Made by a program: the position numbers and the translations under genes. A stretch of 64,000 nucleotides of DNA from a virus (taxonomy: Duplodnaviria; Heunggongvirae; Uroviricota; Caudoviricetes): IMG/VR virus record IMGVR_UViG_3300035522_000061, positions 1 to 64,000 of that record; one strand, 5' to 3'. Shown here in pieces: positions 2,971-55,515 of the stretch. The notes under the pieces are model-generated. The model searched no databases and had not been told where the DNA came from. It worked only from the letters and a program-made list of their open reading frames with translations. Numbering within the stretch: position 1 is the first letter of the stretch; each line of letters opens with the position of its first letter.

Positions 2971-3191
2971 TGGAATTTATAGAATCTGTATTGACGGTTA
3001 TTTTTACAATAATTTTTTTCATCTATTTTATCACGGGAATTATTATAATTATCCGTGCATTTATGGGTGGGAAATAAGGATACGAGAAGAGTCCTATATT
3101 AAGTTCTTCTCAGCTATTAATTTCAAATACATCAGATTCAAACTCTGTTATTTAACGCGAGTTCTGGTGTAAATATTATGTTAGGATCACA

Positions 3192-3266
3192 GTAACTTAT
3201 TTAATTAAGTTATACTTCTTAGAAGTTGTGATCATTTATTCCCGCCGTAACTTAATTAAGTTATAC
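3192..3266. promoter_or_regulatory. pair of near-identical palindromic sites GTAACTTA(TT)TAATTAAGTTATAC
   Basis: Two copies (3192-3215, 3247-3266) of a site built on the perfect palindrome AACTTAATTAAGTT. They lie in a 590-bp region with no ORF. Confidence 0.45.
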
Positions 3267-3560: not shown

Positions 3561-3863
3561 ATGATACAATTTACAAAAGACAAAGAAATCATCTTCGAAT
3601 CAAAAGTATCTGATGTCTTAAAAGATTTAGGATACATTGGATCTGACAGAATTGTGCACATCATTATTGGTGCGTCCGAAAGATTTTGTATGGATATTGA
3701 ACCACTTTCTTGGGCAGGAGTAGTTGGTCAATTGTATAAAACCATCTATAAAGAAACCGCAACTCCAAACGAATATGCAGGTAATGCTGCAATTCTCCTT
3801 CAAGTAGTATTTGCAATCATGGATCTCGAGAGATTGGGATTCAAATTAGAAGAAGAGCCATGA
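3561..3863 (+). CDS. hypothetical protein, DWAGVVGQLY family member 1
   Basis: 100 aa. Shares the WAGVVGQLY motif with the 4030..4341 ORF. Confidence 0.5.
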   Translation: MIQFTKDKEIIFESKVSDVLKDLGYIGSDRIVHIIIGASERFCMDIEPLSWAGVVGQLYKTIYKETATPNEYAGNAAILLQVVFAIMDLERLGFKLEEEP

Positions 3864-4341: not shown

Positions 4342-4577
4342 TACAGAAGACAATTAAGCTCGATGGTTATACCGAATTAGGTGTAATGGGGCATTGGGAA
4401 CCATTTCGTCACACAAGAAAGTATAAAGTCGATATTGAACTACCTGAGTATAATCGTGGTAGTATTGATATTGATGATATACCTTTTAAAGGTGCTTGGA
4501 CTACGGTTCAAATAGACGATATTATGTCAGACTTCGAGGAAATCGAAGGAGAAGCATATTGTCGTCCAGAGGATTAA
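4338..4577 (+). CDS. hypothetical protein
   Basis: 79 aa with an ATGA overlap. Followed by element copy 3. Confidence 0.45.
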   Translation: MIQKTIKLDGYTELGVMGHWEPFRHTRKYKVDIELPEYNRGSIDIDDIPFKGAWTTVQIDDIMSDFEEIEGEAYCRPED

Positions 4578-4586
4578 ATCCTCAGA

Positions 4587-4660
4587 GGGTTGAAATTCCC
4601 GAGACTTAGGTCTCAAAATCCTTCATAATATACACTACCTTGACGAGGTATGAAGGCTTT
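4587..4660 (+). repeat. conserved ~80-nt intergenic element, copy 3
   Basis: Same flanks as copies 1 and 2. Central hairpin GAGAC-TTAG-GTCTC differs in sequence again but still pairs. Confidence 0.6.
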
Positions 4661-4801
4661 TAACAGAATGTGTATAATCCTTTTTGTAGGTTTGAGTAGA
4701 GTGAAGTATAGTAGCTCTCGGTTAAAAATCTACTATGGCAAGCAAGATCTTGAATATAATGTTGGCATTAAAATGAATCTCTAGCTAACGGAGTAAAATC
4801 T

Positions 4802-5023
4802 ATGCAATTAGGTAAGCATTCAATTTTTGAAGAGTTTGAAGTTATAGGCTTAGGAAAGATTACTATCCAAGCAAATAAAAATTATGGAATTATCGACATA
4901 GAGCCGAGAATTCCAGAGATTTTCTCTAAGTACTACGGACGTCAGATTACTGATACTAGAGTTCTTGGTGAGTTAGTAGAAGATATGTATAACACTTTAA
5001 AGTCAGTAGAAAATGAGAAGTAA
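4802..5023 (+). CDS. hypothetical protein
   Basis: 73-aa ORF. Confidence 0.4.
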   Translation: MQLGKHSIFEEFEVIGLGKITIQANKNYGIIDIEPRIPEIFSKYYGRQITDTRVLGELVEDMYNTLKSVENEK

Positions 5024-5468
5024 AGATTTCAAACCTGAAGAGCATATCGCTGATTTGAACAACCTGAAAAGAAATCTAATGTGTTTAAACAGACCTTTTA
5101 GTAGAAGTCTGTTTATAAGTGGACTCAAAGGAATTGGTCTGCCGGACAATGATGTTTTTTGGATGGCAGTGAAACGTAGCGGTATTGTACAACAGCTGAG
5201 CAGAGGCTGTTACATATTCAAGAACGATAAGCCAATACATATTAGTGTGCTGGCTAAAATTCACAAAGACTATCGTAAGATAGTCTGTGATTATAGCAAG
5301 ACTTACAGAGAAAAGCATTCCTCAAAAGAAGTTGAGAAACCTGTAGAAGCTCATGTTCAACTAGAACCTGTACATGAACTTACTGAAGAAAATGCAGTCA
5401 AACTTCTGAAAGAGCTAGGCTATATAATATATAAGCCTGAGGTTGCGATTTTCTACAAAAAATTATAA
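5013..5468 (+). CDS. hypothetical protein
   Basis: 151-aa ORF, basic and Lys-rich. Confidence 0.45.
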   Translation: MRSKDFKPEEHIADLNNLKRNLMCLNRPFSRSLFISGLKGIGLPDNDVFWMAVKRSGIVQQLSRGCYIFKNDKPIHISVLAKIHKDYRKIVCDYSKTYREKHSSKEVEKPVEAHVQLEPVHELTEENAVKLLKELGYIIYKPEVAIFYKKL

Positions 5469-21450: not shown

Positions 21451-22071
21451 TTGAAACATTTAACTCTAAGTTTAGAAGAGGAAATAAATCTCTTGGACAA
21501 ATATAATTTAACTCCTAATGAATTCCTAATAGTTAAAGTTCTTCTATTATTGCAAGATAATGAAGAAGAAGAATTGTTTTATAATTTAATAACAACTATA
21601 AAACATATTGGGCTTGCATTGCGAGATATTCTTATTAGTTTACAAGAGAAGGGTGTAATTTTAAAAACATATAAAGTACCATCTGAAGGAACTAAATTTG
21701 ATCCTTTTGCTATTCCTATTAATAAGAATTTTGTAAAGCATTTTTATAAATGTTCTTTTGAAATAGGTAAAGAATTATTTGATAATTATCCTCAGTTCGC
21801 TACTATTAACGGTTGTGTAGTACCCCTACGTACTGTTGCTAAGAAGTTTGATTCATTAGAACAAGCTTATCTTAAATATGGTAGAGCAATTGGATTTAAT
21901 CCAGAAAAGCATGAGAAAATTATAGAATTAGTTAAATGGGCAAAAGACAATAATATCTTAAATTGTTCTTTAGCTTCATTTATAGTTAATGAAGGGTGGC
22001 ACGATTTAGAGGCTCTCAGAAATGGTAAAGATGTGGCAAATATTAATTATGATGCAGTTAGAATTTTATGA
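21451..22071 (+). CDS. hypothetical protein (upstream partner of the helicase, possible loader)
   Basis: 206 aa. ATGA-coupled to the DnaB-like gene. Confidence 0.35.
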   Translation: MKHLTLSLEEEINLLDKYNLTPNEFLIVKVLLLLQDNEEEELFYNLITTIKHIGLALRDILISLQEKGVILKTYKVPSEGTKFDPFAIPINKNFVKHFYKCSFEIGKELFDNYPQFATINGCVVPLRTVAKKFDSLEQAYLKYGRAIGFNPEKHEKIIELVKWAKDNNILNCSLASFIVNEGWHDLEALRNGKDVANINYDAVRIL

Positions 22072-22847
22072 TTGCAGAATCATTACTTCATCAGATTGAA
22101 GTAGGTAGATTAGGTAAGCAGTGGGGATACTCAATGGGTCTCCCAAAATTAGAAGAGATAATAGATGGAGTATCTAGAGGAATTTATACTTTAGTATTTA
22201 GTCCTACTGGTAGTGGTAAGAGTTCACTTGCTTTATATTCTTATGTATATAGACCATTAATGGAACATCTTGATGATGGTAATTTTAAAGTTAGTTATTT
22301 TTCATTAGAGATGAGCGCCGAAATGATCTATGCTAAGATATTAAGTATGTATATCTTTGAAACTTATGGAATAGAGTTGTCTACTGGAGAACTTCTTTCT
22401 AGAAAACGTAATTATAAATTATCTGATGATTATTATAAAATAACTCAAGAATGTTTACCTTGGTTACAGAAGGTTGAAAAGATTTTAGTTATTTATGATA
22501 AAGCATTAAATGCTAGTAGTTTATATACAATCTTAATGGCTCAACTAGAAAAAGATGGCAAGTTTGAAGAAACAGATGGTAGAAAAATATATCATCCTAG
22601 TAATGAAGAACTTACTCATTTAGTAGTTATAGACCATTTAAGTTTAGTAAGAAGGTCTAATGGACGTACTCTAAAAGAAGAAATGGATTTAATATCCTCC
22701 TATTTGGTAACATTAAGAAATATATGTAAAATTAGTCCGCTTGTAATTATGCAAGCAAATCGAAATTCTACTTCTATGGATAGAAGAAAAGAAGGATTAA
22801 ATAACTTAAGAATTGATGATACCAAAGATACTGGTGCGCCAAATTAG
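22068..22847 (+). CDS. DnaB-like replicative helicase RecA-fold domain, exon 1 (gene interrupted)
   Basis: Walker A SPTGSGKSS, Walker B HLVVIDHLS and MQANR motif. The ORF stops just before the conserved arginine-finger region, which reappears ~250 nt downstream. Confidence 0.6.
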   Translation: MIAESLLHQIEVGRLGKQWGYSMGLPKLEEIIDGVSRGIYTLVFSPTGSGKSSLALYSYVYRPLMEHLDDGNFKVSYFSLEMSAEMIYAKILSMYIFETYGIELSTGELLSRKRNYKLSDDYYKITQECLPWLQKVEKILVIYDKALNASSLYTILMAQLEKDGKFEETDGRKIYHPSNEELTHLVVIDHLSLVRRSNGRTLKEEMDLISSYLVTLRNICKISPLVIMQANRNSTSMDRRKEGLNNLRIDDTKDTGAPN

Positions 22848-23091
22848 GGCTAGACGCACCTAAAACTCCGTTAAACGGGGAAACTCCTAAATAGGACAAT
22901 CCCGTGCTAAATCCTTTAGAAATAAAGGAAAACGCCTAACGACTAGAAGTGATGCTAAACAGGTAGAGCTGTAGCTATAAAATCTTCCACGAAAGCGGGG
23001 CACTGCTTACATTTGTAAGTTAAAGAGATAGTCTGAACTATATAGTAATATATAGAAGTATAAGATAAAGAACTTATACGATAACATTATG
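22837..23091 (+). mobile_element. putative group I intron in the DnaB-like helicase gene (no homing endonuclease; boundaries +/-10 nt)
   Basis: ~255-nt GC-richer non-coding gap between two halves of one helicase. The downstream half has no ATG. Confidence 0.4.
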
Positions 23092-23944: not shown

Positions 23945-24871
23945 ATGCAACAAAATAATTATTCATTTTATGTTCTTAAATCGGACATATCGCCAGACGA
24001 AATTCGTTATGTAGGAGTAACTACTCAAAAATTAGATAGAAGATTTTCTCAACATAAATACTGTGCTAACCATCCAGAAAAAAGAGGATTACCTGTTCAT
24101 AAATGGATATACTCTGTATATAAAAATGGGGGCTCAGTTATTATAGAGAAAATAGACGAATGCTCAGAAGAAGCTTGGGAAGCTAGAGAGCAATACTGGA
24201 TTAGTTATTATAAAAACCTTGGACATAAATTAATGAATATTGACAAAGGAGGAAAAGGTGTAATAACTAAAGAAAAAAGAAGTATTGATTCTCTTACAAG
24301 AGCAGGAAATGCCCATAAAAAACCGATAACAGCATTTAATTTAGATGGCACTAAATATAAAGATTTTGATTCTATTACTGAAGCAGCAGCTGAATTAAAC
24401 GGATCAATAACTAATATAGATAGTGTATTAAATGGTAATTCTAAATCAGCTTGTGGTTTTATATGGAAATATAAAACAGAAGAAGAAAAAATAGATTCTT
24501 ATAAAAAAGAATCTATTGGAATTAAAATATATCAGTTTGATTTATATGGAAATTTATTAAGAGAATTTGAAAGTAAAAAGTGTGTAATTCAATTCCTTAA
24601 TAAAAATAGCCACCACGCGTTGGATAAAGCCATAAAAAATAAAACTGAATATAAAAGGTTCTTTTGGGCATTAACTGATAAAATAAATATTTCCGAGTAT
24701 GTATCTCCATTTAAATATAAGATTACTAAAAATGGAGAGGAAGTAATTCAATTAATAGAACAAAAAGAAGTTGCTGAGTATTTATGTATATCTAAATCTG
24801 CTGTTAATCAGTGGTTAAAGAAATATAACGGATCGTTTTCATGTAATAATTATATTGTTGATACAATCTAA
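23945..24871 (+). CDS. GIY-YIG homing endonuclease
   Basis: N-terminal YSFYVL...IRYVGVTTQ...R, then FSQHK and N motifs. C-terminal repeated DNA-binding modules (NUMOD/IENR-like GFIWKYK, HTH). Confidence 0.65.
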   Translation: MQQNNYSFYVLKSDISPDEIRYVGVTTQKLDRRFSQHKYCANHPEKRGLPVHKWIYSVYKNGGSVIIEKIDECSEEAWEAREQYWISYYKNLGHKLMNIDKGGKGVITKEKRSIDSLTRAGNAHKKPITAFNLDGTKYKDFDSITEAAAELNGSITNIDSVLNGNSKSACGFIWKYKTEEEKIDSYKKESIGIKIYQFDLYGNLLREFESKKCVIQFLNKNSHHALDKAIKNKTEYKRFFWALTDKINISEYVSPFKYKITKNGEEVIQLIEQKEVAEYLCISKSAVNQWLKKYNGSFSCNNYIVDTI

Positions 24872-31180: not shown

Positions 31181-32485
31181 TTGACAGGGTGGTATCTTCG
31201 GGTATCACCCTATTTTTGTATATATATGAAACAAACAACATTAAAGAAATATCTGGGTATTTTAAAGAGTGTAAAGAAAAGTGGTAAAACTCTAAAACAA
31301 TATTGTGATGCACATTCTGATATGTCTTATAAATCAATAGTGCAAACAATATCTAAAATTAGAGAATTACATGAAGAAGAATCTAAAATAGTTTCAGATA
31401 TTTTGACACTTTATAGTCAGGTGACTAAACAAACACAGACAATTACTAATTGTGAAATTGAAACAGATGCAGTAGCTGAGACATCTTGTGATAGAGATGA
31501 GAATGGACATATTCAGAATTATAGGTATCAAATATTTAGAAAAAACAAAACTCCATTGTGTGGAAGATTGTCCAGAGAAGAAATGGATACTATTTATAGA
31601 TTGTATTCATATTATGGAGATTCTTTAACTCAAAGAGTTATTTCTAGATATTTTGTAGAATTATCTCTAATAGACTTTAAGAGAATTCTTCGTGCATTTA
31701 ATATTACTAAAGCTTCCTCTCCTTTCGCTCCCCATATGTTTGAAGAAAAATCCGAGGAGGAGCTAAGAGAAATACAGCTTCGTGAAAAGGAAAACAGTTT
31801 CCTTAGAAAAGCTGAAGAAGACAATATTAGAAATACGGAGAAACTTCTTAAAAAGTATGCTCAAGAAAATATAGAACTGAAAAAGAAAATAGAAAAATAT
31901 ACAGAATTTTCAATTTCAATTCCTAAAGATTTAGAGCCTTTACATTTTACAGAGAGTTCTCCCTCTACGGGATTGAACTTAAATTTATATTTATCTGATA
32001 TTCATCTAGGTGCTAAAATAAATAGTGGAGCATTGTATCAAGAAAATATAAATTATGGGTATAATGAAGCTAAACGTCGTCTAGTTACTATCTTGCATAA
32101 ATTAGAATGTTTTGAATCATTATTTGATACCATAAATGTAGTACTTTTAGGAGATAATGTTGATTGTCCTGGATTCTTTGGCAAAACTGCCAGATTAGAT
32201 CACGATATGCCAGAAAATATGGATCCTCGTGAGCAAGCTAATAGTTTTATTAAACTTATTATGTGGTTTGTGGAATCTTTGTATGTTTCCAAAATAGGTT
32301 CTAATATAAATATATATTCAGTTCCATGCGGAAATCATGGAGGAAATTTTGAGTATATGTGCAATAAGGCATTAATGGCAAGTATAAATGCTAAATTTCC
32401 AGATGCTAAAACTACTATGTGGGAAGAATTCTACGGAGTATTTAAACAAAGTGGTCATACCTTTGTCTGTGCCCATGGTAATTAA
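31181..32485 (+). CDS. calcineurin-like metallophosphoesterase (Mre11/SbcD-like), exon 1
   Basis: Motifs LSDIHLG, LLGDNVD and CGNHG. The ORF ends in VCAHGN exactly at the last phosphoesterase motif and is followed by a LAGLIDADG ORF. Confidence 0.5.
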   Translation: MTGWYLRVSPYFCIYMKQTTLKKYLGILKSVKKSGKTLKQYCDAHSDMSYKSIVQTISKIRELHEEESKIVSDILTLYSQVTKQTQTITNCEIETDAVAETSCDRDENGHIQNYRYQIFRKNKTPLCGRLSREEMDTIYRLYSYYGDSLTQRVISRYFVELSLIDFKRILRAFNITKASSPFAPHMFEEKSEEELREIQLREKENSFLRKAEEDNIRNTEKLLKKYAQENIELKKKIEKYTEFSISIPKDLEPLHFTESSPSTGLNLNLYLSDIHLGAKINSGALYQENINYGYNEAKRRLVTILHKLECFESLFDTINVVLLGDNVDCPGFFGKTARLDHDMPENMDPREQANSFIKLIMWFVESLYVSKIGSNINIYSVPCGNHGGNFEYMCNKALMASINAKFPDAKTTMWEEFYGVFKQSGHTFVCAHGN

Positions 32486-33837
32486 AATCTAAAAATTAAT
32501 TTTGTTTTATAAAACATATTTCGTATATTTATATGGAAATAGTAATTAATATATAGAAATATGAAATTTTATAAAAATTTAAATCTTGATGATCTTATTA
32601 ACTTACTTTTAAGAGGTGAAAAAACTCTTTCAGAAGTAACTAGAAATTATAAAGATACAGAACAAATAATTATAAATAGATTTAAGGAATTAGGATTTTA
32701 TAAAATAGAAAAAGGAAAGAATATAGTTTCCTGTGCTAAATATAAATATGCAGCTGATAAATATGTTGAATTGGGAGGTTTTCCTAATACAAATATTAAA
32801 GAATTAGCGTCAGAATTTAAAATTAGTGCTAATGAACTATCTGACTATATTTCTACTTATTATCCTGATATAAAAATTTTAGGAAAAGCGAATTTTAATG
32901 AATATATATTTGATTCAATTGATACTGAAGAAAAAGCGTATTGGCTAGGATTTTTATTTGCTGATGGAACTATTAGTTCTTCACCTTTAAGAAAAGAAGT
33001 TAAAACTCAATATCAAATTGAATTATCTTTATCTATCAAAGACTTGGAACATCTTGAAAAGTTTGCTAAATTTTTAGAATATAAGCAATCTTTATATAAA
33101 GATGAAATTAGGTGTAGATTAAGTGTATATTCTAAACATTTATGGAATATTTTAAATGTTAATGGCTGTACTCCTAAGAAATCATTAACTTTGAAATTTC
33201 CTAGAATTGAATTATTTAAATCTAAAGAATTGATATATCATTTTATTAGAGGATATTGGGATGGGGACGGCTGTTTAACTTGGAATGATAAAGAGCATAC
33301 TCGCCCAGAAGTTTCTGTCTTAGGAACAGATGAAATATTAAATTCTATTATTAAATTTATTTGTTCTAAAACACCTACTTTACATATTAATCACCCAGAA
33401 CAACAAAGTATTATTAAATATTTTAATTTAACTGGAAAGGACGCCTATGAAAGTATGTGCAAACTTTATAAAAATTCTACAATATATTTATCGAGAAAAT
33501 ATGAAAAATTTTTAGAATATTGCCGTCTATATGAGGAATCATATAGATAATTAGAAACCAAAATCGGGGAATACTGAGATGTTAATCCCGAGGTAATTAC
33601 AGAAATTAAAAAGTCTGTAACACCGTAACGCGTAGGACTTGAAACTTGTAAAAGAATAAAATAGTCCCAAGAGTGGTTTCCATCCCAACTGAAATAAGTG
33701 GATGAAAAGGTACGCTGAGCTATAGTGAATAGGAAACTATAGAAGTCAAGATAAAAAACTTGGCGATAACATAACTGAAAGACGACCAGTTCTGTAAAAA
33801 GGGACTTCCTCTCAACTTAGATGAAAAGTCTAAGGTA
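32486..33837 (+). mobile_element. putative group I intron carrying a LAGLIDADG homing endonuclease gene
   Basis: Homing endonuclease ORF flanked by non-coding sequence. The 290-nt stretch after the endonuclease gene is GC-richer and structured-looking. The downstream exon opens in frame without an ATG (the track start is TTG). Confidence 0.4.
32561..33550 (+). CDS. LAGLIDADG homing endonuclease
   Basis: Two LAGLIDADG motifs (LGFLFADGTI and RGYWDGDGCL). Confidence 0.7.
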   Translation: MKFYKNLNLDDLINLLLRGEKTLSEVTRNYKDTEQIIINRFKELGFYKIEKGKNIVSCAKYKYAADKYVELGGFPNTNIKELASEFKISANELSDYISTYYPDIKILGKANFNEYIFDSIDTEEKAYWLGFLFADGTISSSPLRKEVKTQYQIELSLSIKDLEHLEKFAKFLEYKQSLYKDEIRCRLSVYSKHLWNILNVNGCTPKKSLTLKFPRIELFKSKELIYHFIRGYWDGDGCLTWNDKEHTRPEVSVLGTDEILNSIIKFICSKTPTLHINHPEQQSIIKYFNLTGKDAYESMCKLYKNSTIYLSRKYEKFLEYCRLYEESYR

Positions 33838-42287: not shown

Positions 42288-43499
42288 ATGAAAGTAACAA
42301 AAAGAAACGGTGAGCCCGCTGAGTTTAATAGAAGTAAAATTGTAAATGCAGTTTCAGCAGCATTTAAAGAATGTGGGTACGAAAGTATCCCTAAAACTAT
42401 TGAGGAAATTGTAGATGAAGTCCAGATTTGGGATAATATCAGTATTGAAGATATACAAGATCAAGTTGAAGAACTTTTAATGGATTATGGATATTCAGAT
42501 GTAGCTAAAGCTTATATTCTTTATAGAGAAGAACGTAAGATGATCCGTGCTGAAAAAGATAAACTCATTAAAGGTATTAAATCTAAACTTGAAGCTTCTA
42601 ATGTAAAAAATCAAAATGCTAATATTGATGAGCATTCATTTGGTGGACGTATTGGCGAAGCAGGTAGAGTTGTAACTAAAGATTATGCTCTTAATTATTG
42701 TATGTCTGAAATGGCTAAGCATAATCATGAAAATAATGAAATATACATTCATGATTTGGATTCTTACGCTGTAGGGATGCACAACTGTTTGAGCATACCA
42801 GTAGATGACTTACTTGCTAACGGGTTTAAGCTAAAGCAAACTGATGTTAGACCTGCTAAGAGTATTAATACAGCATTTCAATTATTAGCTGTAATATTCC
42901 AAGTACAAAGTTTACAACAATTTGGTGGTGTATCTGCAACTCATTTAGATTGGACTATGGTTCCCTATGTAAGACTATCTTTTAATAAGCATTATAGAAC
43001 TGGATTGAAGTATATTGATCACATTCGTAATGAAAAATACGATCAAACAGATTTGTCTATAGAAGATAGTTTGTATAAAGAACATCCTAATTCTTATGAA
43101 TATGCTTTGGATATGACTAAACGAGAAATTCATCAAGCTGTTGAAGGTATGTATCATAATTTAAATACTCTACAAAGTAGAAGTGGTAATCAATTACCTT
43201 TTACTTCTATTAATTATGGTACTTGTACACAACCTGAAGGACGTCTTATTAGTCTAGCTTTACTTGAAGTAAGTAAGAATGGTATTGGTAGCCATCATAG
43301 CACTCCGATTTTTCCGTGCTGTATCGTTCAATTAATGAAAGGTGTTAATCGAAAACCTGGAGATCCGAATTATGATATATTCCAAGAAGCTACTAAGGTT
43401 ACGAGTCTTAGGTTATACCCTAATTATGCCAATGTAGATTGGTCTGGTAATGAAGGGTATGATATAAACGATCCTCGCACTTATTTCAGTACAATGGGT
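42288..43499 (+). CDS. nrdD: anaerobic ribonucleoside-triphosphate reductase NrdD, exon 1 (ATP cone plus N-terminal catalytic region)
   Basis: ATP-cone start MKVTKRNGEPAEFNRSKI. The ORF-track ORF runs to 43505 (...YFSTMGK*). The proposed exon ends after STMG at 43499. Confidence 0.7.
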
Positions 43500-43792
43500 A
43501 AGTGAAAACTGCAGCCCATTTAAAATCTCTTTAACCCTGCTTAAGGGGTGTTTCTATTTAAGCGTAGAAGCTAACGGTTAGGTCTTATTATATAATTGCA
43601 GTGTAAATAATAAGATGAGACCGTGCTAATGTACTTATAGTTATATTAGTACAGAATGTGTATCGACTAAGGGTGATGAGTGTAGCCCTGTAGGATCGGA
43701 GATAAGCACCGATTCCAAACAAGAGACAACTCTTTGTTGTGAAACAAGGAATGAACATATAGTCAGTTCCGATGGTGACATTGGGTAAAATG
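43500..43792 (+). mobile_element. putative group I intron in nrdD (no ORF)
   Basis: 293-nt GC-richer insert. Splicing after ...ATGGGT (U at -1) to TGTAGA... (intron ends in G) gives STMG|CRTANGW. T4 nrdD/sunY is a known intron-containing precedent. Confidence 0.5.
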
Positions 43793-44785
43793 TGTAGAAC
43801 TGCGAATGGCTGGGATATTAATGGTTTTGGTCAACTTAAAGATGGTAGAGGTAATATCTGTCCTGTTACAATCATACTTCCTACACTTGCAATGAATTCT
43901 AAACTGCAAGCTATATCTAATATGGATAATGCAGATGTAAATATCAAGGATTTAGTATGGAATAAATTTATTGAATTGTTGGATACTAAGATTCATGAAG
44001 CAAAAGATATGCTAATTGAACGATTTGATTGGATATGTAGTCAAGATGCTGCATCCGCTAAGTTTATGTATCAAAATAATGTAATGTATGGATATAAACC
44101 TGAAGAAGGTATCCGTTCAGCATTAAAACATGGTACTTTAGCTATTGGTCAATTAGGATTATCAGAAGCTTTGAGAATTATTTTCGGTAAAGACCACACT
44201 GATTCAGAAATTATGGATAAAGCTAAAGAATTAGAAGCTCTCTTTAAGAAGAGATGTAGTGAATTCAAAGAAGCTTATAAACTTAATTTTGGTGTTTACT
44301 ATACTCCTGCTGAAAATCTGTGTTATACAGCAATGCAGAAATTTAAGAAGCAATTTGGCGAAGTTCCAGGAATTACAGAACGTGAGTTCTTTACTAATAG
44401 TATGCACGTACCTGTATGGCATGAATGCACTCCATTTGAGAAAATTGAAATTGAATCACAGCTTACTGGTTTCAGTAGTGCAGGTTGTATAACTTATGTT
44501 GAATTACCTGCTTCTACTAAGCATAATCCAGAAGCTATTGAAGAGATTGTTAATTATGCAATGGATCATGATATTCCATACTTTGCCATTAATGTACCAA
44601 ATGATTCTTGTCAAGACTGTGGTTATATTGATGAATTGAATGATACTTGTCCTATGTGCGGTAGTAAAAATATCAAACGATTACGTCGTGTAACAGGCTA
44701 CCTTACCGGAGACTACAAGACGTCATTTAACGTTGGTAAGCAACAGGAGGTCGAACAACGAGTTAAACATATAAAAGAATTATAA
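43793..44785 (+). CDS. nrdD: NrdD exon 2 (glycyl-radical C-terminal half)
   Basis: Glycyl radical motif RRVTGYLTG near the C-terminus and Zn-ribbon CQDCGY...CPMCGS. The track ORF begins at 43772 inside the putative intron. Confidence 0.7.
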   Translation, partial: CRTANGWDINGFGQLKDGRGNICPVTIILPTLAMNSKLQAISNMDNADVNIKDLVWNKFIELLDTKIHEAKDMLIERFDWICSQDAASAKFMYQNNVMYGYKPEEGIRSALKHGTLAIGQLGLSEALRIIFGKDHTDSEIMDKAKELEALFKKRCSEFKEAYKLNFGVYYTPAENLCYTAMQKFKKQFGEVPGITEREFFTNSMHVPVWHECTPFEKIEIESQLTGFSSAGCITYVELPASTKHNPEAIEEIVNYAMDHDIPYFAINVPNDSCQDCGYIDELNDTCPMCGSKNIKRLRRVTGYLTGDYKTSFNVGKQQEVEQRVKHIKEL

Positions 44786-45469: not shown

Positions 45470-45727
45470 ATGGATATATTTATTGTTTATAATGATGAAT
45501 CTACAATAAAGAGAATAGACGGTACTTTTAAAGTATCTCCTTTCTTTCATTTTATAGATGATCAAACTAGATATGGCAAGAAGGAAGCTTGGAAATTAAA
45601 AGGTAGTTTTGGAGCTAGATTAACTCCATTTGTAGCAATATTTGAGAATGATAAACCCATTAAGGCGTTTTATTCAGAAACTGGGGAAGATGTAATTAAA
45701 TCTTTAATTAATTATTTAAATCAATGA
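45470..45727 (+). CDS. hypothetical protein, paralog family B (with 39439..39726)
   Basis: 85 aa. Possible thioredoxin-like fold without CxxC. Sits between nrdG and the phosphatase gene. Confidence 0.45.
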   Translation: MDIFIVYNDESTIKRIDGTFKVSPFFHFIDDQTRYGKKEAWKLKGSFGARLTPFVAIFENDKPIKAFYSETGEDVIKSLINYLNQ

Positions 45728-45930
45728 TAGTAGTTTTAGGAGACATACACGGCAGAACTATATGGAAGAAAATTCTAGAAATAGAGCATCCAGATAAGGT
45801 AATATTTCTTGGAGATTATGTAACTACCCATTATGGTATTTCATCAGAAACACAAATAGAAAATTTAAAAGAGATCCTAACATATAAAGAAAATAATCCT
45901 GACAAAGTAATACTTCTACGAGGAAACCAT
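45724..45930 (+). CDS. lambda-type Ser/Thr protein phosphatase (PPP family), exon 1
   Basis: GDIHGR, FLGDYV and LRGNH motifs. The track ORF continues seven codons to a stop at 45948. Confidence 0.55.
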
Positions 45931-46972
45931 AAAATTAACAAATTTTAAAAATTTTTAATTGGCAATCTGAGGTAATCATATTATATTTGTAATAATAAAA
46001 TTCAAATATATATGAGTACTAGAAAATACTATTTTAATGAAAATTATTTTAATGAGTTAAAAACTCATGAACAAGCATATATATTAGGCTTTATATATGC
46101 AGATGGGTATAATCGAGAAGATTGTCTAGAATTAGATCAATTAGGTGAAAGAATTGATATATTAGAAAAAATTAATAAAGCATTAAATTCCGAATATCCT
46201 ATAAAGAGTTACAGTCCCAATATTTATAGACTTACTTTTAATAGTGTAAAATTATGTTCCGATTTGATAAAACTAGGAGCAATCCGCAATAAATCTTTAA
46301 CTCTTACTTTTCCAACTTTTATTCCTATTGAATTAATGTCTTCTTTTATTTTAGGATATTTTGACGGGGATGGTTGTGTTTGGAACGGTAAACGTAAAGT
46401 AATGACTGTAAAAAATGAAAAGAAGCCTGGAGAATATAGAAATAGAATAGTTCATAATGTAAAATTTACTTTTACTGGCAATTCTGAATTTATAAGTTCT
46501 TTACAGGATTTTTTAATTCAACAGGGTATTGTTTCTAAAAAAACTAAATTAAATTTTAGTAAAGCGAAGAATCCTAACACTCCTACGTGTGATAAAGTTT
46601 GCACAATGGAATATTCTGGTAGAAAACAAATGCGAAATTTGTATGAATATATGTATTCTAAATCACCTATTTGGTGTAATGAAAAAAAATTAAAATTTGA
46701 ACAAATATTTTGTGCGTCTAAGGAGAAATCCTTAGAGGACACCTCGTTAATTGCTGGAACGTCTGAGATGATAATCAGCAGCCAAGCTTCAGATAATATA
46801 TCTGTTGAAGGTTCATCGACTATCCCTGAAATGGGAGTAGAATCAAGTGATTCGAAATGCGAGGCTCCTAACTCTGTAAAAGAGAAGGATGAAGATATAG
46901 TCAGTTCTGCAACAAAATGAAGTTGCAGCGTTAAAATTGGGATTAATTTAACGAATTAATCTAAACAAAAAG
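45931..46972 (+). mobile_element. putative group I intron with LAGLIDADG homing endonuclease inside the phosphatase gene
   Basis: Splicing after ...AACCAT (U at -1) to GATAATCAAGAA... (intron ends in G at 46972) joins RGNH|DNQELGYSW, recreating the GNHD/E motif. The downstream frame is open from 46973 with no ATG. Confidence 0.5.
46012..46920 (+). CDS. LAGLIDADG homing endonuclease
   Basis: LGFIYADGY and LGYFDGDGCV motifs. Ser/Glu-rich C-terminal tail. Confidence 0.7.
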   Translation: MSTRKYYFNENYFNELKTHEQAYILGFIYADGYNREDCLELDQLGERIDILEKINKALNSEYPIKSYSPNIYRLTFNSVKLCSDLIKLGAIRNKSLTLTFPTFIPIELMSSFILGYFDGDGCVWNGKRKVMTVKNEKKPGEYRNRIVHNVKFTFTGNSEFISSLQDFLIQQGIVSKKTKLNFSKAKNPNTPTCDKVCTMEYSGRKQMRNLYEYMYSKSPIWCNEKKLKFEQIFCASKEKSLEDTSLIAGTSEMIISSQASDNISVEGSSTIPEMGVESSDSKCEAPNSVKEKDEDIVSSATK

Positions 46973-47449
46973 GATAATCAAGAACTTGGATATAGTTGGG
47001 GTGAATGTTCTGGATATGATTCATATGTAGCTAAACATATGACTGCTATGAAGGATAGATTTCTAGAAGATACTCAATGGATACATATTGAAAATAATAT
47101 AATCTTTTCACATGCTGGAGTTTCTAAGGTTTGGTTAGAACAAAGTGCTAAAGTTAAGCTAGAGGATGTTAATAAATTACCCCCTTCAGAAATATTTGGA
47201 TTTATTCCTGATAATCGCTATGATTTCTGTGGAGAATCAGTAACACAATCTATTACTTGGATTCGACCCACTAAGTTAATATCATGTAATATAGATGGAT
47301 ATGATCAAGTAATTGGTCATAGTCCTGTAGAAGAAATTACAAGCATGGTAGCAGATAATGGACAATTAATTTATGCGTGTGATTGTCTCGAAAACAAACA
47401 GTATTTAGTTATTGATAATAATAAATTTATTCCTAAAAGTATTTTATAA
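46973..47449 (+). CDS. Ser/Thr protein phosphatase exon 2
   Basis: IFSHAGV (HGG-type motif) and VIGHSP (final GH motif). The first Met is at 47039 but the frame opens at 46973. Confidence 0.55.
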   Translation, partial: DNQELGYSWGECSGYDSYVAKHMTAMKDRFLEDTQWIHIENNIIFSHAGVSKVWLEQSAKVKLEDVNKLPPSEIFGFIPDNRYDFCGESVTQSITWIRPTKLISCNIDGYDQVIGHSPVEEITSMVADNGQLIYACDCLENKQYLVIDNNKFIPKSIL

Positions 47450-49833: not shown

Positions 49834-50562
49834 GTGGAGCCTTTTTCAAATCAGGAAAAAAATTATGTTACGATTGTTTGTAAAGATCATGGTGAGTTTA
49901 GAACTACCCCAAGAACATTTTTAGATGGAAAATATGGATGTCCTACCTGTGCTAGATTTTTAAAAGGGAGAAATAGTAAAAGTGATTTAAATAATATTGT
50001 TACAAATTCTTTACCAGATATGTTAATTATTGAATCTCCCATAATTGTATTAAAAGAAAAAATTATAGGAACAGTTTACTGTTTTATAAATACTATTAAT
50101 AATAAATTATATATAGGAGAAACAGTAAAATCTAATTATGAGGAACGTTTCAGTGAGCATAGAAATAAAGCAGAAAAAGGTAATAATTATTTTTACAAAG
50201 CTATAAGAAAGTATGGCTGGGATAAATTTGATAAAGTAATATTGTTTCAAACAGACGTTCTAGATAATACGCCGGAGAACAAAAAATTATTGAATGATAT
50301 TGTTAACGAAAAAGAAATATATTATATTAATAAATATAAAACTTCTGATCATAAATTTGGTTATAATTTAACTAATGGAGGTGATGGAATTGTTGGCTAT
50401 AAGCATTCAGAAAAAACTCTAAAAACTTTATCAGAAACTCATTCTGGAGAAAAACATTGGAAATATGGCAAAAATAATTATGGAGGTTGCGCAATTTTAC
50501 AATTTGATCTTGATTTTAATTTAATTAAAGAATGGGACAGTATGAAAGAAATAGAGCGTTAG
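49834..50562 (+). CDS. GIY-YIG homing endonuclease (N-terminal part)
   Basis: VYCFINTINNKLYIGETV...YEERFSEHRN is a GIY-YIG module. C-terminal NUMOD-like repeats. Ends at an in-frame TAG immediately before the next ORF. Confidence 0.6.
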   Translation: MEPFSNQEKNYVTIVCKDHGEFRTTPRTFLDGKYGCPTCARFLKGRNSKSDLNNIVTNSLPDMLIIESPIIVLKEKIIGTVYCFINTINNKLYIGETVKSNYEERFSEHRNKAEKGNNYFYKAIRKYGWDKFDKVILFQTDVLDNTPENKKLLNDIVNEKEIYYINKYKTSDHKFGYNLTNGGDGIVGYKHSEKTLKTLSETHSGEKHWKYGKNNYGGCAILQFDLDFNLIKEWDSMKEIER

Positions 50563-53154: not shown

Positions 53155-54444
53155 ATGATTTATTTAGTAAGTAAAGATAAAAAACTATATTCTCCAGAAA
53201 GATATAGAGAAGTAGACTTTAAGGAGGCTATGGATATTTTATATCCTTTAAAAGAGGTACAATTAGATACAGAAACTAAAGGATTAGATTGTTTTACGAA
53301 GGAATTACTTACTTTGCAATTAGGGTGTACTGAAAATCAAGTTGTATTTGATTGGAGAACTATAAGTCCTTCTGAAAAGTCTATTTTAAAAGAATATCTA
53401 GAGTCTGATAGAGTGTTCTTGGGGCATAATATAATGTTTGATTTAACCTTTTTATATAAACAAAATATTTGGCCCAATCATGTTTATGATACTATGGTAG
53501 TAGAACAATTAATATATTTAGGGTATCCTAGAGTATTAGCTACCGAAATAGTACAGACATATGGAATTAAACCTTCTTGTTATGAATATATTGCTCCCGA
53601 CGAAAAAACTAAAGAACATTGGGAATTATCTTATTCTTTACGAGCTACTGCAAAAAGAAGACTTGGAGTAGATATTGACAAAACTGTTCGAGGAAAAATT
53701 ATAAATGAAGGTTTAACAGAAGATGTTGTAGTATATGCTGCTGGGGATGTAATGTGGCTAGAGCCTATAAAAGAAAAGCAACTAGAAGAATTATCTACTC
53801 AAGATCTTTTAAAGGCTGCAGAATTTGAATGTGAATTTATTAAATTTTTAGCATATGTAAAATTCTGTGGAGTTCATTTGGATATTTCTAAATGGAAAGA
53901 AAAAATGAAAAATGATCAAGCTTCTTTAAGAGAAGCTGAGTCACAATTAAATAAATTTGTTATAGATTTAGATGCTAAAGAATATTTATATAGATATGCT
54001 AAAAATAAAAAAGAAAAAGAAAAATTAGTAGCATTAGGATTTATTCGATTTCCCGAAAAAGATGATTCTATGGAGTGTTACAGATATAAAATAAAAGGAA
54101 AATTTGTATCTATAAATTTACAATTATCCTTATTTGAAGAATGTAATGACATAGGGCCACAATGCACTATAAATTGGAGTAGTTCTACTCAAGTTATAAA
54201 ATTATTTGAACTTCTTGGGATACAAGTTACAACTTTTGATAAAAAGACTAAAAAAGAAAAGAAGTCCATTAATGCTACGTTAATTAGTTCTCAAGTTGAT
54301 AAATTTCCTATTCTTGCTATATTTTTAAAGTATCAAGCCGCCTCAAAAGTTGTATCTACTTATGGTCAAAACTGGTTAGACGCTATTAATCCAGTAACTG
54401 GAAGAATTCATGTTGATCTACATTCTATTGGAACAGATACAGGT
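53155..54444 (+). CDS. family A DNA polymerase, exon 1 (3'-5' exonuclease plus N-terminal polymerase part)
   Basis: Exo I QLDTETKGLD, Exo II HNIMFDL and Exo III YAAGDV. Ends ...VTGRIHVDLHSIGTDTG. The track ORF stops at 54459. Confidence 0.7.
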
Positions 54445-55515
54445 GAAAAATTTCCATAAATTACAATTTTTCTATTAATTTTATTTCTAAGGTATTAACT
54501 ATTTTAATCTGTCCTAAATAATTATTATATTTGCATATAATAAATTTAAATTAAATATATGTATTATGATTAAAAAATGGACTGAGTAGGAAATAGAAAA
54601 TTTAGTATCTGAGTATAACTCAGGTAAAGATACTGGAGAATTAGCAGTTATGTTTAATTGTTCTAAGTATCAAATTAGAAATAAATTAAAAGATAAGGGG
54701 ATTGTTTTAAGAAAAACTGCCCTTAATCGAACTTATAAATCGAAAGCTATTGTTCCGTTACAAGCATGGACAGATAAAATAGGCAGTCCAGAATTTGACT
54801 ATTTTATTGGAATACTAGCCTCGGATGGTTGTATTGTTGATACTTGTACAGCTTTAGAAGTTAAAGATTTAGAATTAATAGAAAATTATAATAAATTTTT
54901 AGGTTTTCGATGTAATATTAATTCAAGAAAATCTAAAGTTAATGGCAATGTCTATTATAATATTAAGTATAAAAATAAAGAAATAGTTAACTTTTTATCT
55001 GAATATGGTATAGTGCCAAGAAAATCTAACATACTAATGCTTCCATATATAAATTGGAATATATTATTAGGAATTTTTGATGGAGATGGTAGTATTACTA
55101 AAGATAAAAGATATGAGTGCTGTTTTAAATTTACTATTACTTCTGGAAGTATTAATTTTATTAATCAAGTTAAGAAGTTTTTAGAAAAAGAGAATATCTC
55201 TCCAAATATACAAGAATATAATACAGATAGTGGACATTGGTATAATATATATGTAACTAAAGGTGAACATATATATAAAATATATTGTAATTTATATAAA
55301 GACTCCTCTTTCTTTCTGTCTAGAAAGAAAGAAAAATTCGGCCCCTTAGTAGAGAAATTTGCTAAGTGTAACTCCGTAAATTCAGTTAATGGGAGGGAAA
55401 ACCAGAAGACTGAGCCAAGCCTTAATATTGAGGAAGGTGCAGAGACTAGAAACGGAGAACCTAAGTAATAAGTAATTGTTATAAGGTTGAGGTATAGTCC
55501 GGCATGGAAATGTTG
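54445..55515 (+). mobile_element. putative group I intron with LAGLIDADG homing endonuclease splitting the DNA polymerase gene
   Basis: Splicing after ...GATACAGGT (U at -1) to CGAGTATCTAGT... (intron ends in G) yields GTDTG|RVSSGGG..NLP, restoring the Pol I TGR(L)SS...QNIP motif. Confidence 0.5.
54650..55468 (+). CDS. LAGLIDADG homing endonuclease
   Basis: IGILASDGCI and LGIFDGDGSI motifs. Confidence 0.7.
   Translation: MFNCSKYQIRNKLKDKGIVLRKTALNRTYKSKAIVPLQAWTDKIGSPEFDYFIGILASDGCIVDTCTALEVKDLELIENYNKFLGFRCNINSRKSKVNGNVYYNIKYKNKEIVNFLSEYGIVPRKSNILMLPYINWNILLGIFDGDGSITKDKRYECCFKFTITSGSINFINQVKKFLEKENISPNIQEYNTDSGHWYNIYVTKGEHIYKIYCNLYKDSSFFLSRKKEKFGPLVEKFAKCNSVNSVNGRENQKTEPSLNIEEGAETRNGEPK

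Follow-up and report, generated by a model that had tools for sequence, protein, structure and literature searches.

A probable mobile group I intron in the catalytic GNHD motif of a phage NinI/PPP-like metallophosphatase gene

The viral record IMGVR_UViG_3300035522_000061 (Caudoviricetes) was analysed over its positions 1 to 64,000, a stretch of 64,000 nucleotides (nt) that is referred to here as the window. On the plus strand, a metallophosphatase gene is interrupted at positions 45931-46972 by an insert of 1,042 nt, which we read, with a probability of about 0.9, as a functional and mobile group I intron in a gene for a phage NinI/PPP-like metallophosphatase, where it separates the His codon from the Asp codon in the catalytic GNHD motif. 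The intron is of the IA type, comprises helices P1 to P9.1 including P7.1 and P7.2, and carries the gene for a LAGLIDADG homing endonuclease in the loop of P1. Judged from its sequence, the intron is real and probably active. That phage genes can contain group I introns with homing endonucleases is textbook knowledge, and the element is a selfish element of a well-known kind that constitutes no new class of mechanism. Modestly novel are the targeting of one motif across different genes and an open reading frame (ORF) that starts in the P1 loop and reads through the ribozyme.

The interrupted gene and its splice junction

Exon 1 (45724-45930, plus strand) encompasses 69 codons, matches the Pfam family Metallophos (1.5e-8) and encodes the motifs GDIHG, GDYV and LLRGNH, which had been recognized in the initial annotation of the sequence. 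It is part of the ORF 45724-45948, which starts with MIVVLGDIHG, and it ends with ...AAC CAT, the last triplet being the His codon and its U at 45930 the 5' splice-site nucleotide. Beyond CAT the frame reads AAA ATT AAC AAA TTT TAA. The early in-frame stop that had been described is therefore present, located at 45946-45948 (plus strand) six codons inside the intron, but it is the sixth codon after the His and not the seventh; all relatives examined likewise encounter a stop in this frame within the first few codons of the intron. Exon 2 (46973-47449, plus strand; 158 codons and a stop) starts with GAT, the Asp codon of GNHD, and contains the motifs SHAG and GH. Its frame is open from 46952 and the first possible start codon (ATG, GTG or TTG) occurs only at 47039, in agreement with the earlier description of this exon.

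Position 45930 is a T, i.e., U at position -1, and 46972 is a G, the final nucleotide of the intron, both as originally noted. The exon flanks are ...GGAAACCAT (exon 1) joined to GATAATCAAG (exon 2); as contiguous sequence the intron-less site is ATACTTCTACGAGGAAACCAYGATAATCAAGAACTTGGATAT, with the general form ATACTTCTACGAGGAAACCAY/GATAATCAAGAACTTGGATAT, in which Y is T or C (here and below, a slash within a sequence marks the junction). Joining 45724-45930 and 46973-47449 yields a metallophosphatase of 227 amino acids (aa) with RGNH/DNQELGY at the junction. With this spliced protein as query 1,338 database proteins were retrieved, the best full-length ones having 229-238 aa, 55-62% identity and a coverage of 97-100%. 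An alignment with 17 uninterrupted homologs (53-61% identity) shows no gap at LLRGNH/D.Q.LGY, bearing out the proposal that splicing recreates a GNH(D/E) motif; R66, G67, N68 and H69 do not vary in it, and the conservation of D70 is at least 90%. The homologs are single proteins, the two halves being separate proteins in none of them, and tblastn matches in GenBank phages run uninterrupted across the junction. In the syntenic locus L085 (gene order NrdD, NrdG-like, small ORF, Metallophos, dUTPase, ..., DNA ligase; relatives are designated by L numbers) the phosphatase gene is uninterrupted. As a shift of either splice site by one base breaks the frame, 45930/46973 is the sole junction that fits both the rule of U at -1 and G at the omega position and the protein alignment. 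A megablast search for a close relative of the region among GenBank phages gave no match, meaning that there is no cultured or annotated close relative among them.

The spliced protein matches the generic Metallophos family alone in Pfam (4.3e-13). Its best PHROG family is phrog_246, NinI-like Ser/Thr phosphatase, with a weak match (1.7e-6), and the best matches by sequence in the Protein Data Bank (PDB) are PP2A/PP1, again weak (E ~0.002), with an alignment that crosses the junction. An alignment to lambda PPase had been suggested as a check, and the spliced product indeed aligns across the junction with its homologs; its alignments to PP2A/PP1 and to the NinI (lambda PPase) PHROG are weak. 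The protein has the motifs GDIHG, SHAG and GH, with GNHD resulting from the splicing, while the second motif, GDYVTTH, is without the DRG of GDxxDRG. Of the original label Ser/Thr phosphatase, the metallophosphatase part stands and the Ser/Thr part is a guess from these matches; the name PPP/NinI-like metallophosphatase appears justified, with metallophosphoesterase as the safe name.

Ribozyme structure and covariation

The ribozyme core at 46693-46923 (plus strand) matches the Rfam group I intron model RF00028 and comprises P2, P3, P4, P5, P6/6a, P7, P7.1, P7.2, P8 and P9. The match reaches 67.0 bits (gathering threshold 50; E 1.5e-16), covers model positions 1-253 and thus the full model, and was obtained by searching 45850-47050 alone with laxer filters; it overlaps the 3' end of the endonuclease ORF. 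A natural ORF-less relative, L078, scores 66.6 bits in Rfam. Between P7 and the 3' strand of P3 two hairpins are formed, P7.1 and P7.2 (UCCC with GGGA and GAAUC with GAUUC), both with compensatory changes. Such hairpins are the hallmark of subgroup IA, which is the home of the classical phage introns. What the initial annotation called an intron-like element, proposing a group I covariance search, is thereby upgraded to a group I intron of the IA type. The 5' strand of P7, GACUA (46818-46822, plus strand), pairs with UAGUC at 46898-46902 and forms the guanosine-binding helix, which is pseudoknotted with P3. A 3' extension (46924-46972, plus strand) contains the P9.1 hairpin, GAUUAAUU-UAACG-AAUUAAUC, and ends in the omega-G, G46972; the introns of all 13 relatives end in ...AAG/ or ...AAAG/.

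For the structure alignment 13 distinct family members were used, drawn from IMG/VR via endonuclease homologs (59-64% identity) and the conserved core motif. Two of them, L078 and L049, are natural ORF-less introns of 302-304 nt and from the other 11 the P1-loop insert was removed computationally. Without guidance, RNAalifold predicted P1, P2, P3, P4, P5, P6/6a, P7.1, P7.2, P8, P9 and P9.1 from these 13 sequences, with compensatory double changes in 42 of 66 pairs. In a pair-count test P7 was added as a pseudoknot, giving 13 helices with 71 pairs, and the counts were compared with controls in which the pairing partners were slid and with 500 shuffles. A standard pair was found in 97.4% of the cells (31-41% in the slid controls), double changes in 42 of the 71 pairs (8-17 in the slid controls) and the covariation score was 0.541 (0.06-0.10 in the slid controls); none of the 500 shuffles reached any of the observed measures. 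P9.1, the thirteenth helix, shows compensatory changes at six of seven pairs, while P7 is invariant and its pairing is therefore uninformative for covariation. Of the 71 consensus pairs the copy in the window forms 69, among them the U·G wobble and P7, and the terminal G is likewise retained.

P1 is a long-range helix. Its 5' strand, CAU/AAAAU (45928-45935, plus strand), includes only three exon nucleotides, and its 3' strand, the internal guide sequence AUUUUGUG at 46707-46714 (plus strand), is located approximately 770 nt 3' of the 5' splice site and inside the endonuclease ORF, with the wobble formed by U45930·G46712. The endonuclease gene consequently sits in the terminal loop of P1. The C-G, A-U and U·G pairs of P1 are invariant in 13 of 13 members, and four of the eight pairs show compensatory changes; those at +1, +2 and +4 are seen in L015 (AGAAU:AUUCU), L017 (UAA:UUA), L070 (GUA:UAC) and L007 (AAAUUU:AAAUUU). 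In the ORF-less members L078 and L049, P1 is a compact local hairpin, CAU/UGAUUGUAU-UUAAA-AUACAAUUUGUG. A local P1 hairpin at the 5' splice site of the window (AAAAUU-AACA-AAUUUU) was rejected as it cannot hold the U·G wobble, and it is the long-range P1 that covaries.

In the proposed mechanism, CAU/AAAAU of the pre-mRNA would pair with the guide sequence, so that the splice site lies at the U·G wobble of the resulting P1, and the core from P3 to P9 with P7.1 and P7.2 would fold thereafter. Exogenous guanosine would then attack after U45930, the 3'-OH of exon 1 would subsequently attack after G46972, and ligation of the exons would result in the 227-aa enzyme. The endonuclease presumably cuts intron-less alleles at GNH/D, whereupon repair would copy the intron in.

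The endonuclease and the probable mobility and spread of the intron over metallophosphoesterase genes

The endonuclease ORF (46012-46920, plus strand; 302 aa) is intact, has its own ATG and encodes two motifs, ILGFIYADG (with D31) and ILGYFDGDG (with D118/D120). It matches LAGLIDADG_3 in Pfam (1.9e-6), confirming the enzyme class proposed initially, and phrog_4645, annotated as 'endonuclease', over residues 3-232 (3.5e-40). Homologs form 618 database clusters, many of them 60-86% identical and 285-308 aa long, and D31/G32 as well as D118-G119-D120-G121 are invariant across 27 aligned endonucleases. A search of the PDB by sequence gave no match. An AlphaFold model (predicted template modelling score 0.72) is confident for residues 1-236, mostly with a predicted local distance difference test (pLDDT) above 90, and has a pseudo-dimeric alpha-beta-beta-alpha-beta-beta-alpha fold. 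In a structure search the top 50 PDB matches were all LAGLIDADG homing endonucleases or maturases (probability 1.00, 10-17% identity), among them I-Tsp061I, I-MsoI, I-LtrWI, I-AniI, I-OnuI and bI3. With I-Tsp061I, I-AniI and the I-OnuI/I-LtrWI family the predicted structure shares the two-domain fold with two LAGLIDADG helices and catalytic Asp residues (E 2e-9 to 1e-7, probability 1.00); in contrast to these enzymes, to which it is 10-17% identical, the phage enzyme has an additional tail of 66 disordered residues encoded by the ribozyme. According to the model, the insert encodes a monomeric two-domain LAGLIDADG enzyme with a folded domain of approximately residues 1-236.

The tail, residues 237-302, is predicted to be disordered (pLDDT ~30) and corresponds to the translated ribozyme from P2 through P9. 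Its amino acid sequence, EGSSTIPEMGVESSDSKC, is highly conserved, evidently because the ribozyme RNA is constrained. Loop insertions and deletions preserve the endonuclease frame in most relatives, and the position of the stop varies, being in P8, in P9 or before P2 (L070). We infer that the tail is a tolerated read-through and not a functional domain.

Two further observations concern the endonuclease gene. Upstream of its ATG, a block at 45959-45987 (plus strand; TTGGCAATCTGAGG...TATATTTG) is common to the window, L006, L008 and L090 and holds a conserved TAnnTTTG-like element approximately 25 nt before the ATG. This element resembles the -7 promoter box of Bacteroidota and may be a putative internal promoter for the endonuclease; a scan for sigma-70 promoters and terminators gave counts no higher than chance. 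In L007 and L012 (~3700-3730; proteins P0196, P0201 and P0204) the endonuclease ORF has an in-frame TAG inside P3, CACCUAGU, which the database proteins read as Gln (...KDTQLIAG...), suggesting phages that use a code in which TAG encodes Gln.

Mobility is supported by occupied and empty alleles. The closest endonuclease relatives (85% and 77% identity) are found in related phages, where they are inserted at the identical position of the orthologous phosphatase gene. One of them, L090, can be compared with the empty L086 and L087, with which it shares 96-97% identity along 2.3 kb of upstream and 1 kb of downstream sequence; precisely at GNH/D the alignment is interrupted by an insert of approximately 1,040 nt, and the only difference at the junction is CAT in the occupied and CAC in the empty alleles. 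This pattern of presence and absence is the classic signature of a homing intron. L090 represents a sibling lineage, its endonuclease being the one with 77% identity, and the empty counterpart of the window itself is the more distant syntenic L085. L090 has a second insertion of approximately 785 nt after the dUTPase gene (4479-5263, compared with 3727-3734 in L087), which encodes a NUMOD1/I-HmuI-like endonuclease of 233 aa. Deleted, frameshifted, truncated or remnant endonuclease genes were found in L009 (~2983-3010), L010 (~3167-3240), L015, L017, L025, L084 and L048, and relatives with dead endonucleases retain compensated ribozyme helices. Together with the ORF-less L078, L049 and L071, these decayed genes fit a cycle of invasion, endonuclease decay and loss.

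In a sub-lineage, defined by a guide sequence ending in ...UGUGC and a 3' end AACAnnAAG/G, every member is directly preceded by a (G/S)NH codon and followed by a G. The host genes belong to four classes of metallophosphoesterases that are mutually unrelated by BLASTP. Class A contains the NinI-like phosphatases of ~230 aa (window, L090, L070, L007 and L048), class B the phrog_547 phosphoesterases of ~200 aa (L006, L008 and L025), class C the exonuclease-like phrog_284 proteins of ~505 aa (L015, L017, L065 and L078) and class D a phrog_1649 metallo-phosphoesterase of 268 aa (L084). The relatedness of the ribozymes is incongruent with host class: L006 and L015 (classes B and C) share 96% identity and L007 and L065 (A and C) 85%, while L015 and L017 (both C) share 61% and the window and L070 (both A) 58%. 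The reconstructed sites have in common roughly GGN AAY CAT/GR. The simplest reading of these sequences is repeated transposition among non-orthologous genes that have only the catalytic motif in common. Since the intron would need only CAU of the exon and its target would be a catalytic motif that defines the superfamily, relatives could have colonised the same motif in non-orthologous metallophosphoesterase genes, and the minimal exon requirement would ease such jumps. We slightly favour the wider view that the lineage as a whole is a 'motif-homing' element, which needs only CAU for P1, targets the GNH(D/E) codons, has moved repeatedly among metallophosphoesterase genes of gut phages and keeps its P1-loop ORF in frame through the core. 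The family is a compact natural example of the way in which a selfish intron can spread over a protein superfamily, its exon dependence being three nucleotides and its target an invariant catalytic motif. Its diverged LAGLIDADG enzymes, with cognate sites sharing only GGN AAY CAT/GR, are of possible use for meganuclease engineering and for studies of specificity evolution.

Alternative explanations, known systems and other split genes

Several points weigh against a functional intron or its mobility. Splicing is deduced from the mechanism of the family and from sequence. The whole-window Rfam scan at the gathering threshold missed the intron at 45931-46972, and a permissive Rfam scan of nine loci (56 kb) likewise missed the introns of the family; as the local search gives 67 bits, both misses are effects of the speed filters, and these filters of Infernal appear to discard phage introns that are AT-rich and have large inserts in their loops. 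The P1 loop was removed from 11 of the 13 sequences before the covariation test, and the 5' splice sites of the relatives were picked among AAYCAT candidates partly by their pairing with the guide, so that P1 taken alone is biased; this is offset by the chosen site being the end of the upstream metallophosphatase ORF in every relative, and by the ORF-less members. P10, assessed by eye, would have at most ~2 base pairs with exon 2 (GAU...), a G·U and an A-U. The endonuclease ORF runs through P1'-P9, and translation and ribozyme folding are consequently mutually exclusive on one molecule. Finally, the class C exonuclease-like gene of the window itself has an empty GNH site (32318-32340, plus strand; GGAAATCAT/GGAGGA, boundary at 32338) that is identical to the occupied site of L015 at 34 of 42 positions and has the CAT codon but no intron. 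The endonuclease can therefore not be regarded as a general 'GNH cutter', and every lineage of the enzyme probably recognizes an extended site of its own. Because of this empty site, the choice between CAT and CAC was also rejected as what determines occupancy: CAT is present at all occupied sites and CAC at three empty ones, but the site at 32338 is empty and has CAT, so that CAT is necessary for the U·G wobble and insufficient for invasion.

Among the alternatives, one is a variant of our reading and does not exclude it, namely that the intron splices only with a protein cofactor, either the LAGLIDADG protein acting as maturase or a host factor. This is unlikely. The bifunctional I-AniI and the bI3 maturase are among the structural neighbours of the endonuclease, its ORF is in frame through the ribozyme core, and a bacterial LAGLIDADG maturase is documented in Thermotoga (PMC3984707). 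However, the C-terminal tail of the endonuclease is predicted to be disordered, and ORF-less and endonuclease-dead relatives persist with host genes that are otherwise intact and with fully compensated cores, which argues that the RNA is independent of its own protein.

It is considerably less probable that the element is a decayed group I intron that no longer splices and has left the phosphatase gene of this phage as a pseudogene. Decay of the endonuclease genes does occur in the family, as in the seven loci named above, but the ribozyme helices are compensated even in those relatives. In the window, nearly all consensus pairs are retained, the frame is open in both exons with no catalytic motif lost, and the endonuclease ORF is undamaged and still encodes the catalytic Asp residues.

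Gene callers give three ORFs of 74, 302 and 136 aa, as would be expected if a free-standing endonuclease gene had been inserted and the halves were made as separate polypeptides, or one of them only. We regard such a split gene without splicing as highly improbable, since the endonuclease gene lies within a group I ribozyme that is complete and shows covariation, exon 2 is without a start codon over its first 22 codons, and the break lies inside the catalytic GNHD motif of a protein whose homologs are all single chains. The functional group I intron favoured here implies that the phosphatase should be annotated as one protein of 227 aa in place of the three ORFs and, given the 618 clusters of the endonuclease family, that the same correction would apply to hundreds of metagenomic phage contigs. 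An intein, a programmed frameshift or a read-through joining the halves as protein is refuted by the sequence and has a probability of practically nil: inteins, too, carry LAGLIDADG domains and target catalytic motifs, but here the exon-1 frame ends with TAA at 45946, several stops are present in all frames between the exons, a Pfam search found no Hint domain, and the endonuclease ORF starts with an ATG of its own.

According to a review of 2014, most of the enzymes encoded in phage introns are of the GIY-YIG, HNH, PD-(D/E)xK or EDxHD type (PMC3984707). The group IA2 introns of T4 td, nrdB and nrdD (sunY) with I-TevI, I-TevII and I-TevIII (PMC3984707) resemble the intron described here in being of the IA type in phage genes (of nucleotide metabolism in T4), in having an in-frame stop soon after the 5' splice site and a peripheral loop that may hold an endonuclease ORF, and in their insertion at conserved catalytic residues. 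They differ in the endonuclease, which here is LAGLIDADG and not GIY-YIG or HNH, in the host gene, which here is a metallophosphatase, and in the location of the ORF, which here lies in the P1 loop and runs through the whole core, whereas the T4 ORFs are in P6a or P9.1. Dense group I introns and homing endonucleases, including LAGLIDADG enzymes, are described in the available text for crAss-like Zeta-group phages (145-192 kb; PMC7886860) and for Jug gut phages (360-402 kb; PMC12880540), in which they split core genes. The window resembles both groups in its richness in introns and endonucleases, and related contigs have 150-190 kb, which is a likeness and not a group assignment. The introns reported there reside in MCP, PolB, TerL, primase and nrdD, and in the accessible parts of these papers a metallophosphatase host, GNH targeting and the P1-loop architecture are not mentioned (PMC7886860; PMC12880540). 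A single case of a group I intron with a LAGLIDADG endonuclease was reported in 2025 for the DNA polymerase gene of Bastillevirinae (Nitunavirus), i.e., the same combination in a different intron, at a different site and in a polymerase host (PMC11878797). In the literature accessible to a full-text search no evident description of a group I intron in a phage metallophosphatase or of targeting of a GNH motif was found.

Further genes of the window are split. The exonuclease-like metallophosphoesterase gene has an insert of 1,298 nt (32480-33777, plus strand) with a different LAGLIDADG ORF (32546-33550); exon 1 ends with ...CAHG at 32479 and exon 2 starts with KDDQF at 33778, a U precedes the 5' junction and G is the final base of the insert. 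This insert has no Rfam match, and L078 and L071 are interrupted at the same HG/(K or D) position. NrdD is split into an N-terminal part of 405 aa (42288-43505) and a C-terminal part of 337 aa (43772-44785), while it is uninterrupted with 726 aa in the syntenic L085. The gap of 266 nt (43506-43771, plus strand) has no Rfam match at E<=1 and carries the P7/J8-7 signature of the phosphatase intron, GTATCGACTA ... CATATAGTCAGTTCCG/ATG. A separate group I intron at 22798-23055 (plus strand; RF00028, 70.3 bits, E 8.6e-16) was found in the whole-window scan; it follows and overlaps the end of the ORF of a DnaB-like helicase fragment (22068-22847), and an ORF for an HNH endonuclease (23945-24871) is located 3' of it. 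More split genes are suggested by an ORF at 53155-54459 that encodes a fragment of a DNA polymerase. An ORF for a free-standing GIY-YIG-type homing endonuclease (49834-50562, plus strand; phrog_314/phrog_5123) lies right after the DNA ligase gene, and introns and endonuclease genes are unusually numerous in this genome.

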